NCBI GenBank assembly: GCA_043803405.1
Contig: JAZDKB010000006.1
Span: 32,001 to 96,000 of the forward strand
Source: Spirochaetota bacterium
GTDB taxonomy: Bacteria > Spirochaetota > UBA4802 > JAFGDQ01
Direction of reading: 5' to 3'
DNA: 64,000 nucleotides
In this document: one piece after another, positions 8,220-39,633 of the stretch
How positions within the stretch are numbered: position 1 is the stretch's first letter
How the letters are laid out: each line of letters begins with the position of its first letter
The notes under the pieces: model-generated
Seen by the model: only the letters and a program-made list of their open reading frames with translations
Database searches by the model: none
Told to the model about the DNA's origin: nothing
Made by a program: the position numbers and the translations under genes

Positions 8220-8347
8220 ACAGATCGAAATACATTACAAAATTTACTCCGGAATCAGGCCTTCCTGGTCTGTCTTTCATATTTTCGAAGGTATTGCATC
8301 AGGCCTGAAAGGCGTCCTCATAAATTTTGTAATGTATTTCGATCTGT
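8220..8347. mobile_element. MITE-like element with a perfect 27-bp terminal inverted repeat
   Basis: acagatcgaaatacattacaaaattta (8220-8246) is the exact reverse complement of 8321-8347, around a 74-bp non-coding core. Confidence 0.65.
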
Positions 8348-15150: not shown

Positions 15151-15197
15151 GTGCTTGTTTAAATTGAGCGGTTTATCCGGAATCATGATAATTTATA

Positions 15198-15344
15198 AAA
15201 TAATGATTATAAGTTCAGAACTTATTGTTATAATTCGTGAAGTTATTGTTATAAGTTGTTAAATAATCATTATAAGTTCAGAAGTTATTATCATAACTTG
15301 TGAAATAATGATCATAAGTTCACAAATAATCATCATTATTCTCC
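15198..15344. repeat. Degenerate tandem array, 7 x 21 bp
   Basis: Units: aaataatgattataagttcag / aacttattgttataattcgtg / aagttattgttataagttgtt / aaataatcattataagttcag / aagttattatcataacttgtg / aaataatgatcataagttcac / aaataatcatcattattctcc. Confidence 0.85.
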
Positions 15345-15396
15345 AAATAATTAAGGCTTAGGAAGCAATTTTAATAAAAAAACGCAATATAAGCAC

Positions 15397-17674: not shown

Positions 17675-17777
17675 GGCCCCCTAAATCCCCCTAGAGGGGG
17701 ACTTTCGGCTTTTTTTAAAGAGAAAAGCTTGTACTTTTTCCGTTTTTAAGTCCCCCTCTAGGGGGATTTAGGGGGCC
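17675..17777. repeat. REP-doublet-like palindrome with a perfect 30-bp inverted repeat
   Basis: ggccccctaaatccccctagagggggactt (17675-17704) and its exact reverse complement at 17748-17777. Each arm holds its own hairpin, tcccc-taga-ggggga. Confidence 0.85.
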
Positions 17778-34417: not shown

Positions 34418-34611
34418 ATATCCTTTATATTTTTTAATGATTTTGATTTTAGAATAATATTTTTAATCTGAAAGGCCACATATCACATTATCATAAAGTC
34501 AAAACAAATTCAAAGAAAAAGTCATATAAAAAGCCGCATAAGGCCGGTAATGCGTCAATAACTTTTTTTGATAAATAATAAGGGGCAGCAGATTAAATAA
34601 TCTATTTTCTT

Positions 34612-34639
34612 GAGATTTATCCCTTCGGTCGAAATGACA
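34612..34639 (+). repeat. Short REP-like half element (copy 2)
   Basis: gagatttatcccttcggtcgaaatgaca, similar to 24251-24279. Confidence 0.55.
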
Positions 34640-34679
34640 TTATTTATTATTAATAAATTACTAGCCGCATATTATACAA

Positions 34680-35336: not shown

Positions 35337-36131
35337 ATGAATATAAATGAAAAAAATCCGGTTATAACGACCGGTGCCGGTGCATTAATCGGAACATTAG
35401 GAGGGCTTATTGGACTTGGCGGCGCCGAGTTTCGTTTGCCGCTTCTCATAGGCTTGTTTGGATACTCTGCTCTGCCGGCAGTCATATTAAATAAAGCGAT
35501 GAGCCTCGCAGTTGTAGCATCCGCTCTTCCGTTTCGGGCATCCGTTATTCCGTTTAGGGATATTGCTTCACATTGGAATATTATTGTTACGCTTTTAGCA
35601 GGAAGTCTTTTAGGAGCATGGTTTGGCGCGGATTTAGCTACTAAAATGAAGTCTCACACTCTTTACAGGGTTTTATCTATACTGCTGGTTGTGATAGCTG
35701 TGGTGCTTTTTTTCGGGCATAATCCTGCTGCTTCGTCTGACTATAGTCTTACCGGTTTATGGCGCATAGTTGCAGGAGTAATTGCCGGTTTTGGTATTGG
35801 AGTAGTCGCAGCGCTCATGGGAGTTGCAGGCGGCGAACTATTAATTCCAACTATAGTCCTTCTTTTTGGTGCCGATATAAAATTGGCCGGAAGTTTATCA
35901 CTTGCAGTGAGCCTTCCTACTATGATTGTGAGCTTTACCCGGTATAGCAGGGATCAGGCTTTTTCTGTTATTAAAAGCGAACGACGTTTTGTTGTTTTAA
36001 TGGTTATAGGCTCTCTTTGTGGATCTTTTATAGGAGGCTTATTGCTTAATATTATTCCAACAAGTATGTTGCTTCCTTTGCTTTCGGTGATCCTTCTTAT
36101 TTCTGCAGTAAAAATCTGGAACCATGCATAA
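35337..36131 (+). CDS. Sulfite exporter TauE/SafE (TSUP) family protein
   Basis: Duplicated Gly-rich motifs GGLIGLGGAEFRLP and ALMGVAGGELLIP, about 8 TM. Confidence 0.88.
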   Translation: MNINEKNPVITTGAGALIGTLGGLIGLGGAEFRLPLLIGLFGYSALPAVILNKAMSLAVVASALPFRASVIPFRDIASHWNIIVTLLAGSLLGAWFGADLATKMKSHTLYRVLSILLVVIAVVLFFGHNPAASSDYSLTGLWRIVAGVIAGFGIGVVAALMGVAGGELLIPTIVLLFGADIKLAGSLSLAVSLPTMIVSFTRYSRDQAFSVIKSERRFVVLMVIGSLCGSFIGGLLLNIIPTSMLLPLLSVILLISAVKIWNHA

Positions 36132-36204
36132 CTATCAAAAAATTTGATATCAGTTCAGGCAGGCTATTGCCCGTGTGTTTAATCAGAAGCAAGTAATCAA
36201 GCCT

Positions 36205-36371
36205 TCGATGCAGCAATTCAGCATTCGCTTTCCGGCTGTCGCAGCGCACAGGCTAACGCATGATCGAAACAGAGAATGATAAGTAAGTTTCGAAACGCGT
36301 TCGGGAAGATGCGCGCTTTGCGTAATCCGCGTTCGCAGCAAAGGGCGTGGGAGCAGCACGGGCGCGCGGGG
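36205..36371. repeat. Structured direct repeat, element B
   Basis: 36218-36371 matches 37309-37462 at 147/154 positions by manual alignment and contains multiple stems. Confidence 0.92.
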
Positions 36372-36473
36372 TATTTATTTAATATTTTTTCATTACCGTA
36401 TAAAAGAATTGCAATAATCCGGAATAAATATATATTACTGTAAAATATGTATTTGTAATCCGGAGTTAAGCAA

Positions 36474-36782
36474 ATGACGATTGAAAATGAAATCGGCCTG
36501 ATAATAAAGCAACTCAAAGAAAATGTCGAAAGAAAATATCACATTGTTGACATGAAATTATTCGGTTCATCTGCGCGGGGTGATTCTTCAAAATCTTCAG
36601 ATATCGACATTTTAATTAAACTACCAATTGTAAACCGCAGTATTGAAGAGGATATTTTTGATATAGCATACGAACTGGAATTGGAACATGATTGTATTAT
36701 TGATGTAATCGTAGTGCCGGAAACTGTTAATATTAATATTCCTTTATATCATAATGTTGAAAAAGAAGGAATCGCGATTTGA
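36474..36782 (+). CDS. Minimal nucleotidyltransferase (MNT antitoxin)
   Basis: LFGSSARGD…SDIDI and a third Asp in IDVIV. Confidence 0.9.
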   Translation: MTIENEIGLIIKQLKENVERKYHIVDMKLFGSSARGDSSKSSDIDILIKLPIVNRSIEEDIFDIAYELELEHDCIIDVIVVPETVNINIPLYHNVEKEGIAI

Positions 36783-37186
36783 CTAATGAAGAAAAAATCA
36801 TACTTATTAAGTATCGGTTGGAACGCGCGGATGAATCGCTAAAAGCTGCTTCTTTAATGTTTGAAAATAATTTGTATATCCCCGCAATTAACCGGATTTA
36901 TTATTCAATGTTTTATGCTATCCAGGCATTGCTTGTAATAAGTGAAAGTACTTTTACAAAACATGGCCAGGTCAAAGGTTACTTTAACCGTGCGTTTATA
37001 AAAACCGGAATTTTCCCGAAAGAATTCGGCAGGCTTTTCAATACCGTATTTGAATACCGGCAAAAATTTGACTATGTAGATTTGGTTTTACCAGGGAGAG
37101 AACTTGTATCAGATTATATAATCGAAGCAAAACGATTTAATGAAAGAATTTCACTATATTTGAACAACAAATTAACAAACCTTTAA
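36779..37186 (+). CDS. HEPN domain protein (partner of MNT)
   Basis: NRIYYSMFYA, KHGQV and FEYRQKFDY. Overlaps the MNT gene by 4 bp. Confidence 0.88.
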   Translation: MTNEEKIILIKYRLERADESLKAASLMFENNLYIPAINRIYYSMFYAIQALLVISESTFTKHGQVKGYFNRAFIKTGIFPKEFGRLFNTVFEYRQKFDYVDLVLPGRELVSDYIIEAKRFNERISLYLNNKLTNL

Positions 37187-37294
37187 GTGATTAAAATAAA
37201 TTTCCTGCCATTTTATAAATTCTAAAAATATTGAATAGCAACTGTTGCTTCTCCGGTTACCTGTTTTTTGCTTGTAATGCTCGCTGCCAGGTCA

Positions 37295-37462
37295 TCGATG
37301 CAACAGGATCAGCATTCGCTTTCCGGCTGTCGCAGCGCACAGGCTAACGCACGATCGAAACAGAGAATGATAAGTAAGTTTCGAAACGCGTTCGGGAAGA
37401 TGCGTTCTTTGCGTAATCCGCGTTCGCAGCAAAAGACTTGGAAGCAGCACGGGCGCGCGGGG
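37295..37462. repeat. Structured direct repeat, element C
   Basis: Second copy of 36205-36371. Confidence 0.92.
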
Positions 37463-37514
37463 AGTACAGGCTATCTTAACTGGTAAATATTTTTGTTTCA
37501 ACACATTAAACATA

Positions 37515-37576
37515 ATACCTTTGCTTTCGCGTCGGCCGACACCGCAGGTGGCGGCTGGTACGTCAGTACGGGGATT
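37515..37576. other. GC-rich hairpin element D
   Basis: tcggccgacacc-gca-ggtggcggctgg. Has a c-GCA-g loop and ends in cgggg, like elements B and C. Confidence 0.45.
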
Positions 37577-37827
37577 CTATTACACCTTCAATTATTTCAT
37601 TAAGTTTTTTTTACTTTAATGACCCCAGCTTTATAAAGAATTATTTTTAAATCAGCCGTAAAATTTTTTTATTAATTTCTTTGTTACGATCCCCATCCAT
37701 TTTACGCTTATATGCAAATTCTGAAAAACATTATTTGTGGTGATTTGTCCGGAATCAGAGCTCATTTCCAAAGATAATTCTATCAGAAAGAAATTATTAT
37801 CAATTTTAAATTATTTAGGAGGATAAT

Positions 37828-38598
37828 ATGAAAAACTGTGTCAAATTATTCGTCATATTGTTTTGTTTATCGTTTGCGATGATCGGATGCGGCGGCGGAG
37901 GCAGCGGCGGCGGTTCCGGTGGGTCTATTCTAACCCTGCCTGAGCTTGAAGATGTAGAGGGTAATAAATATGGTACATGCATGATAGGCAATCAATTATG
38001 GATGGCGGAAAATCTTCGCACTATATCCTTCCGCGACGGGTACTGGATGCTGACCGGACCTTTTGACAGTGTAGAATGGGCTAGCGCCGGAGCAGCCACT
38101 TGCGTATATCCGTACGATGCAATTGGTTTAGATTCAGCTGCAGCGGTAATTGAAGCCTATGGAAGGCTTTACAACTGGTATTCAGTGAATGACAGCAGAG
38201 GCCTTTGCCCTGAAGGGTGGCGCGTACCCACTGAAGAGGACTGGCTGGAACTTATCGACTACCTCGGAGGAGAGGAAGTTGCAGGAGGTAAACTGAAAAG
38301 TTACCGTACTGCTCCCATTTCCAATCATCCGCGCTGGGAAAGCCCCAATACCGGCGTTACCGGTGACTATCGTTTTAATGCACTTCCAGGAGGTTATCGC
38401 ACAGGGCTTACCGGTTTTTTTGATGAAGTTGGCTACTATGCATCATTCTGGAGCAGTACGGAATTTGAGACTACTTTTGCAGGTACAATGTCTCTTGACT
38501 ACAGTAGTACTTTTGCGGATTATGGTTATAGTCATAAAAGGGCTGGTTATTCGGTACGTTGTATATGCGGCGACGGAGGAGGAGTAGTCGCTCCGTAG
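37828..38598 (+). CDS. Lipoprotein with a Fibrobacter succinogenes major paralogous (FISUMP)-type domain
   Basis: Lipobox MIGC and a Gly linker, then IGNQLWMAENL, YGRLYNW, LCPEGWRVPT, FNALPGG and GYSVRC. AGGAGG RBS. Confidence 0.88.
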   Translation: MKNCVKLFVILFCLSFAMIGCGGGGSGGGSGGSILTLPELEDVEGNKYGTCMIGNQLWMAENLRTISFRDGYWMLTGPFDSVEWASAGAATCVYPYDAIGLDSAAAVIEAYGRLYNWYSVNDSRGLCPEGWRVPTEEDWLELIDYLGGEEVAGGKLKSYRTAPISNHPRWESPNTGVTGDYRFNALPGGYRTGLTGFFDEVGYYASFWSSTEFETTFAGTMSLDYSSTFADYGYSHKRAGYSVRCICGDGGGVVAP

Positions 38599-38885: not shown

Positions 38886-38914
38886 TTGACAAATGAGTGA
38901 CACGAGAGTATCTT
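38886..38914 (+). promoter_or_regulatory. Sigma70-type promoter of the Phd-PIN operon
   Basis: TTGACA-17 bp-TATCTT, 30 bp upstream of the ATG at 38945. Confidence 0.65.
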
Positions 38915-38944
38915 TCTGTTATAAACGTATTATCGAGGCAACAA

Positions 38945-39226
38945 ATGAAATTTATTACAGTCAGAGATTTAAGAACCACTCCGGCAAAGATATGGAAAGA
39001 TTTGCCGGATGAACAGGAAATGGTAATAACCAATAACGGTAAACCAATTGCTCTTTTAACTCCTTTAACTGACTCTGATATGGAAGATACATTGTCAACA
39101 ATAAGAAAGGCGAGAGCGGGCAGCGCAATCAGTAAAATGCAATTTTCTGCAATTAAAAATAATCTGTCTGATATGACATCGGAAGAAATTGAAAAAGAAA
39201 TAAAAGCAGCCAGAAAAAATAAATGA
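38945..39226 (+). CDS. Phd/YefM-type antitoxin
   Basis: MKFITVRDLR…VITNNGKPIALL, with a GAGG RBS. Confidence 0.85.
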   Translation: MKFITVRDLRTTPAKIWKDLPDEQEMVITNNGKPIALLTPLTDSDMEDTLSTIRKARAGSAISKMQFSAIKNNLSDMTSEEIEKEIKAARKNK

Positions 39227-39633
39227 AAATTGTCTTAGACACTAATGTCTTAATTTCTGCTTTATTAAATCCTGAAGGAATCCCCGCGGTGTTGTTAAGT
39301 TTAATTGTTAACGGTAAGTTGAAATTACTCTATGACAATAGAATATTATCAGAATATTTTGAGGTTTTAAACCGCAAAAAGTTCAATTTCAAATCTGAAT
39401 GGATAGAGCCTCTGATCGATTTCATTAGAAATGAAGGTGAATTTATAATTGCTAATCCGGTTTTCAAATCATTTAAAGATAAAGATGATATAAAATTTTA
39501 TGAAGTAGCCAAATCCGGTAACGCAAAATATATAATTACCGGAAATATAAATCATTTCCCAAAAGAAGATTTAATTAAAACTCCTGCTGAGTTTTTAAAT
39601 ATTTACACAAGAATAAATAAACAAAATAATTAA
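39223..39633 (+). CDS. PIN-domain toxin
   Basis: IVLDTNVLISAL, EY.EVL, DKDD and ITGN..HF. ATGA overlap with the antitoxin. Confidence 0.9.
   Translation: MKIVLDTNVLISALLNPEGIPAVLLSLIVNGKLKLLYDNRILSEYFEVLNRKKFNFKSEWIEPLIDFIRNEGEFIIANPVFKSFKDKDDIKFYEVAKSGNAKYIITGNINHFPKEDLIKTPAEFLNIYTRINKQNN

Follow-up and report, generated by a model that had tools for sequence, protein, structure and literature searches.

How does a toxin-antitoxin (TA) pair that brings no mobility gene come to stand between two long, near-identical stretches of intergenic DNA? To our knowledge, it is not settled how small TA modules of this kind spread through chromosomes. The locus considered here lies in a 64-kb stretch of spirochaete DNA that was analysed as a whole (hereafter the window), in which a minimal nucleotidyltransferase (MNT) gene and a HEPN gene are flanked by two direct repeats. 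The original prediction described these repeats as GC-rich, intergenic and identical at 147 of 154 positions, all of which we confirm, and it saw in them either recombination sites or a repeated non-coding RNA mobilising the TA pair.

The repeat pair and its MNT-HEPN cargo

The two repeat copies (Table 1) are spaced by about 0.92 kb and differ at 36261, 36314, 36315, 36343, 36345, 36347 and 36351 in copy 1 numbering. On the 5' side their similarity reaches ~36205 and ~37295 (168 columns, 93%), which gives a repeat length of 154-168 bp, and the 5' flanks of the two copies are not significantly alike (p 0.20). The GC content is 58% in copy 1 and 55% in copy 2, 30% in the interval between them and 40% in the window. 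TRF detected no tandem-repeat origin for the repeat, and one 154-nt contig from sequencing run X2, possibly derived from the source sample, matches 36108-36261 exactly. The 5' end of a group II intron was also considered as the identity of the repeat and was rejected by eye; the host's own intron, on contig C9, is dissimilar.

Table 1. Features of the locus, in window coordinates, and of related arrays, in contig coordinates
Feature	Position	Strand	Basis or remark
TauE/SafE-family membrane protein gene, left neighbour	35337..36131	+	PF01925 E 2e-27
Short terminator-like hairpin after tauE; holds left CAGGCTAT (36160-67), overlaps 5' arm of copy 1 outer stem	36158..36171	+
Repeat copy 1	36205..36371, near-identical core 36218-36371	+	sequence alignment
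55-nt hairpin, attC-like AAC/GTT spacing, no extra L-box base	36251..36305; copy 2 37342-37396	-
Tail unit with AGCAGCAnGGGCG motif, copy 1	36343..36367	+	33.3 bits, best site outside training loci
Cargo unit: AT-rich promoter region and MNT-HEPN	36384..37186	+	extent common to relative L071
MNT, predicted antitoxin	36474..36782	+	PF01909 E 2.5e-11, PF18765
HEPN protein, HEPN-T type, putative toxin	36779..37186	+	PF05168 E 1.8e-15
Repeat copy 2	37295..37462, core 37309-37462	+	sequence alignment
Tail unit, copy 2	37434-37458	+	26.8 bits
Degenerate further tail unit; holds right CAGGCTAT (37467-74)	37451..37475	+	13.6 bits
Dispersed REP/MITE-like repeat, near TTCAA start	37486..37580	+	17 hits in host genome, 33 in G002, 3 in G001
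Fib_succ_major-domain gene, right neighbour	37828..38598	+	PF09603 E 2e-38
TA-module array	C15:227200-234000 (L158)		host genome
TA-module array	C19:70800-72500 (L159)		host genome
TA-module array	C44:28700-32200 (L160)		host genome
TA-module array	C21:12100-24100 (L161)		host genome
Similar array elements	C18:124700-128000		host genome
Similar array elements	C10:140000-144600		host genome

The surroundings of the repeat pair are rich in small elements of other kinds. The dispersed repeat family at 37486-37580 is, we assume, possibly derived from IS200/605. On the left, a GC-rich intergenic element that is unique in the genome (34661-34826) marks the edge of the variable region and is preceded by a dispersed short palindromic repeat (~34596-34660), and about 1.4 kb to the right of the repeats lies a second TA pair (Phd-like and PIN_3, 38897-39633). 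Elsewhere in the window we observed a 21-nt AT-rich tandem repeat of about eight units (15188-15355) and perfect inverted repeats of 30 nt (17675-17777) and 27 nt (8220-8347), which belong to dispersed families with 28 and 36 blast hits.

MNT and HEPN are the sole genes between the copies, and the insert holds no other mobile-element gene. The MNT protein scores below the cut-off of the MntA model. In the HEPN protein, the Rx4-6H RNase motif of Type VII HepT/MntA is replaced by R94-QKF-D-Y (R-x3-D-Y), and an upstream histidine, H62, is conserved in an alignment of 14 sequences; the variant corresponds to HEPN-T as characterised in PMC3710099. Since this HEPN lacks the canonical catalytic histidine, addiction by the pair is treated as putative throughout. 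Relatives of the HEPN protein are known up to 84% identity, and none was found in viral contigs. The cargo of the closest relative (L071) is 82% identical at the DNA level; the homology begins at 36384, 13 nt past copy 1, and stops at the HEPN stop codon, and it includes a promoter-like site (36409-36436) that is not above chance. The cargo occurs elsewhere without the repeat. Indeed, the repeat is absent from all 80 metagenome loci where HEPN relatives lie, which speaks against a travelling unit of repeat, TA pair and repeat.

In the host assembly (3.98 Mb, 94% complete), blastn, nhmmer, k-mer chaining and a covariance model all return two copies of the repeat only. Further copies in relatives, which the original prediction had suggested looking for, did not appear: there were none in 121 genomes of the order, none by blastn in 40 relatives, none in plasmids and phages, and no exact 22-mer in metagenomes. 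A sample of 400 genomes of the phylum gave three weak matches, all in coding genes; a gapped repeat pattern gave 15 matches in genome contigs, none alike beyond the seed; and repeat patterns gave 8, 15, 0, 0 and 2 matches in viral sequences, which were seed-only or coding. The covariance model produced weak matches only (E 0.07-4), on array elements of the host genome that are described below.

Alleles with a single repeat or a single 8-mer were likewise sought in G001-G005 and in three low-depth sequencing runs, and none was found. The locus is not syntenic in G001-G005; in G002 a conserved gene that borders the region on the left has unrelated genes after it, which leaves no empty site to be read there, and the short contigs of runs X1-X3 (4, 2 and 0) hold no empty-site joint. 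The original prediction had named a repeat confined to these two copies, with no empty site in relatives, as the outcome that would count against it, and this is the outcome obtained as far as the data reach.

Fold, outer stems and the attC-like hairpin

Each copy had been predicted to adopt a multi-branched fold. Although all of the named stems can be drawn, the 154-nt core, folded as RNA, does not exceed its dinucleotide shuffles in stability, with z = -1.08 and +0.66 for the two copies on the + strand and z = -1.41 and +0.55 on the - strand, and with 8-74 of 100 shuffles equally stable over both strands. The outer closing stem of each copy is present where it had been placed, and the 5' flank of each copy can pair with its own tail; together with this stem, copy 1 reaches borderline stability (z ~-2) and copy 2 does not depart from shuffles (z ~0). 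The compensatory change reported for the last stem gives no covariation signal: one of 11 pairs changes on both sides, while another three lack pairing in one of the copies (copy 2 has lost two and gained one), and the covariation score, for which only two sequences can be compared, is reached by 252 of 500 shuffles. Recognition of the repeat as a specific folded single strand is therefore not borne out, given a fold at the level of shuffles, no covariation signal between the two copies and no structural homologue among the 121 genomes of the order.

The same results bear on the idea that the repeats represent a duplicated structured non-coding RNA or cis-regulator. Their intergenic position 3' of genes and their drawable stems, which include G-U pairs on the + strand, would suit such an element. 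However, the fold does not exceed shuffles, the two copies show no covariation signal and the covariance model has no match in any of the 121 order genomes; moreover, the repeat has no Rfam match at the gathering score or at E<=10, in agreement with the earlier judgement that it is not a known RNA family. We consider this reading very unlikely.

One part of the repeat does stand out against shuffles, namely a 55-nt hairpin (36251-36305; z -1.3 to -4.5), which was chosen after inspection. In attC sites the R boxes are set apart by spacers of 5/6 nt. The - strand of the hairpin (36305-36251) holds R boxes of the form AAC...GTT, although R'' fits RYYYAAC poorly. The embedded hairpin could be a degenerate attC, and the locus a CALIN of two sites whose TA cassette is reverse-oriented and mobilised by the host's integron integrase (IntI). 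This is consistent with the arrangement AAC...GTTAGCC, spaced by 5 and 6 nt, on the - strand of a significant hairpin, with an IntI on C9 whose 453.6 bits exceed the cut-off of 265, and with the passing of a strict attC rule by two of 72 HEPN-relative loci (background 3/782); TA cassettes are common in integrons, according to PMC13108822. Yet the hairpin lacks an extra-helical base, its L box pairing at seven of seven positions without one and at five with one, whereas two attC controls from the host integron score better with an extra-helical base, and the same pattern without this base occurs at 18 other places in the host genome. In addition, cassette logic does not account for an identity of the two repeats that runs past the hairpin by ~45 nt and ~65 nt. 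Taken together, we regard an attC origin as highly improbable.

The host's integron on C9 (C9:269625-282264, L050) is complete, with IntI and ~130-nt attC sites, and one of its attC-like sites is interrupted by a group II intron that carries a reverse transcriptase (RT). A further attC-like site lies away from the integron, near an IS110 gene (C10:1790-1885, L051).

A tail motif, the flanking 8-mer and other TA arrays

At six other variable loci of the host genome, most of which hold TA modules, the cargo is spaced by GC-rich mosaic repeats that lie on the same strand and have a tail motif in common. The array elements are 100-330 nt long, each array has its own subtype, and their tails often directly precede AT-rich promoter DNA. 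Two TA cassettes are found in both C15 and C19, amid different neighbours (612 nt, 91.5%; 226 nt, 88.5%), and in a hybrid C21 element a C15/C19-type head is joined to a C21 core. The cargo breakpoints do not fall at one fixed base, and two of the cargos are also found elsewhere without an element.

The repeat pair shares the tail motif of these arrays. When a 25-nt matrix is built from those six arrays, copies 1 and 2 rank first and second among all sites outside the training loci, and no site in the reversed genome reaches 25 bits. Similarly, AGCAGCAVGGGC occurs 17 times in the host genome, 12 times in intergenic DNA including both repeat copies, and not once in the reversed genome. End-to-end alignment of the repeat with four C21 elements gave z 3.7-5.4, on the same strand only, in a set of 64 comparisons. 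Both the seed of the motif and the targets of these alignments were chosen after the repeat copies had been seen. Profile HMMs built with elements left out gave E 0.35, E 6.8 and no match at E<=5. Given the good scores of the motif and the poor ones of these HMMs, the tail motif's kinship with the array spacers is firm, while that of the element as a whole is weak. The predicted role of the repeats as recombination sites that mobilise a TA cargo survives in the broad sense that the motif is common to cargo-separating repeats at six loci, and the repeats have the look of recombination products or substrates that are tied to TA cargo.

Beyond the host genome, exact tail patterns gave coding or isolated matches only (in three of 121 order genomes and two of 300 phylum genomes), and the C21 element was absent from the 121 order genomes and from plasmids. 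A C15-A query matched 25 of the 121; the 23 loci inspected held its short REP-like hairpin parts only, of a kind that is embedded in C15 elements and common to other genomes of the order, and some other matches fell on the adjacent MNT gene. The tail motif resembles, with T changed to C, one arm of a GTAG-type repeat which we take to be a REP, and full GCAG-type palindromes are present at C45:47034 and C4:10408.

The tail motif also bears on the 8-mer CAGGCTAT, which had been read as a target-site duplication. The 8-mer is indeed present at 36160 and 37467, but as a target-site duplication it remains within the range of chance, some 8-mer match being expected in 1.1% of shuffled real flanks (65x20 nt) and, for random intergenic sequence, in 4.7% (65x20) or 17.5% (65x65) of cases. 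CAGGCTA is found inside each repeat copy as well, at 36249 and 37340. The right CAGGCTAT falls within a degenerate further tail unit, which offers an alternative explanation to target duplication; its score is reached by 298 sites outside the arrays and 75 in the reversed genome, so that this is modest evidence. The search for terminator-like hairpins, one of which holds the left 8-mer, returned two sites against 2.1 expected by chance.

A composite of two MITE-like ends (unit 36168-37466), moved by a transposase acting in trans and leaving CAGGCTAT as its 8-bp target-site duplication, would account for the exact 8-mer on both outer sides, rare as this is in shuffled real flanks, and for an outer stem on each copy, in a host genome rich in small repeats. 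Nevertheless, the 8-mer is not flush with a terminal inverted repeat: the outer-stem arm is offset by 1 nt from the left 8-mer and by 12 nt from the right one, and the head-tail complementarity of the copies is not significant (equalled in 201 of 300 and 16 of 300 shuffles). The right 8-mer, moreover, sits in a unit of the tail family, CAGGCTA recurs inside both copies, and dispersed copies, expected of MITEs, are lacking, with no third copy anywhere searched. The target-site duplication is thus not supported, and we think the MITE composite improbable.

TA toxins are enriched between direct repeats in this genome. Direct repeats of at least 40 nt bracket 8 of 37 TA toxin hits (PIN, ParE, HepT and HEPN, the present locus being counted), against 10 among 752 controls of similar size that a crude ORF caller supplied (Fisher p 3.4e-7). 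Five of the eight bracketed toxins have the GC-rich mosaic class, and three have unrelated sequence, including a duplicated gene end. Among the metagenome loci of HEPN relatives, 10 of 80 (or 7 of the 41 whose flanks are long) lie between direct repeats of at least 40 nt that consist of unrelated local DNA, which corresponds to eight independent events, as three of them represent one. The duplicated DNA varies between gene ends, promoter regions and REP-like sequence, and at some loci is, we presume, the 5' end of a group IIC intron. The MNT-HEPN relatives at L088, L092, L102, L146 and L112, for instance, lie between duplicated copies of host gene ends or of intron 5' ends. The locus studied here is one case of a genome-wide pattern in which TA modules lie between duplicated spacers.

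The arrays could alternatively belong to a cassette system independent of the integron, in which an enzyme acting in trans (a recombinase or HUH transposase) reads the repeated AGCAGCAnGGGCG unit, the 150-330-bp mosaic spacers serve as docking sites, promoter-bearing TA and other modules are shuffled at no fewer than seven loci, and our repeats form a two-site array. Such a system would fit the same-strand elements that separate TA modules at C15, C19, C21, C44 and C18, the recurrence of cassettes between arrays, the hybrid element and the resemblance of the tail motif to a GTAG-type REP arm. Candidate enzymes of the types that the original prediction proposed to look for do exist in the host genome (an integron integrase with its array on C9, a Y1 transposase and three IS110 hits), as does one RT; however, none of these hits is on contig C6, and the arrays adjoin different genes. 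Furthermore, the cargo breakpoints do not coincide at a single base, two cargos stand elsewhere without an element, non-motif sequence brackets TA genes equally well (3/8), and exact tail patterns outside the host are only coding or isolated. We therefore judge the cassette system unlikely. The Y1 transposase gene itself (C7:56100-57200, L053) is flanked by REP-like palindromes, degenerate arm repeats and a 21-nt tandem repeat.

Origin of the duplication and closest known systems

We hold, with moderate confidence, that the repeats are a ~155-170 bp duplication of one GC-rich spacer, made as the promoter-MNT-HEPN unit inserted or recombined there. The unit may have entered by homology-assisted recombination or break repair without a dedicated enzyme, either through Campbell-type entry of a circle carrying a near-identical element or through an insertion that leaves a long duplication of its target. 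Insertion of the latter kind was reportedly described for restriction-modification (RM) genes by Nobusato 2000. The differing 5' flanks would then be hybrids of donor and host, and the seven differences between the copies would reflect either ordinary drift after the duplication or differences between donor and host. TA modules may persist between direct repeats because their deletion would cost the cell; such retention by addiction is suggested by analogy with TA cassettes in integrons, as presented in PMC13108822. The pairing of each flank with its own tail, despite dissimilar 5' flanks, is not predicted by a plain duplication and counts against it, and, no empty-site allele having been found, a target duplication lacks the proof that would define it.

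These data suggest that TA pairs, too, are inserted with long flanking duplications, and that a genome-private repeat class may concentrate such insertions into arrays. Were the tail motif read by a dedicated enzyme, the gene-shuffling system would be new; if it is not, the two repeats are an ordinary local duplication. In the literature consulted, which comprised the accessible text of papers free of subscription and without supplements, we found no description of such an arrangement for MNT-HEPN pairs, nor of the tail motif.

The locus shares features with several known systems. Like REP/RAYT systems and CGTC/GTAG-tagged repeats, the elements are GC-rich and extragenic, with a tail that resembles a REP arm, while the repeat pair differs in being two-copy and without a tagged short palindrome (PMC3733652, PMC5581495). 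Like integron arrays and CALIN, same-strand sites separate promoter-bearing TA cassettes in a host that has an IntI (PMC4889954, PMC13108822); unlike attC, the host sites are 150-330 nt mosaics without an extra-helical base, whose identity runs far past the hairpin. The NIME arrays of Neisseria, which consist of lineage-private mosaic intergenic repeats and were proposed to be recombination substrates or recombinase targets, are similar in forming dynamic arrays of mosaic intergenic repeats beside variable genes (PMC1797815). In contrast to NIME, no dRS3-like 20-bp inverted repeat is evident by eye in the host repeats, the conserved unit is a one-directional purine-rich motif, and whole TA modules are spaced by it.

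Finally, restriction-modification genes insert with long target duplication, the duplications being unique in the genome and the flanking repeats enriched over average genes (Furuta et al., 2010, PMC2853133). The cargo described here has no DNase, and hence the rationale of double-strand breaks given for RM genes is not directly applicable; the duplicated DNA also differs in being a mosaic repeat that shares a motif with other arrays. As the cargo is an MNT-HEPN and not an RM pair, the locus is not a member of this class as published but works like it: the repeats exceed the 30 bp and the insert stays below the 20 kb used there, and in both cases a small, possibly addictive gene pair without a mobility gene stands between long, unique direct repeats.
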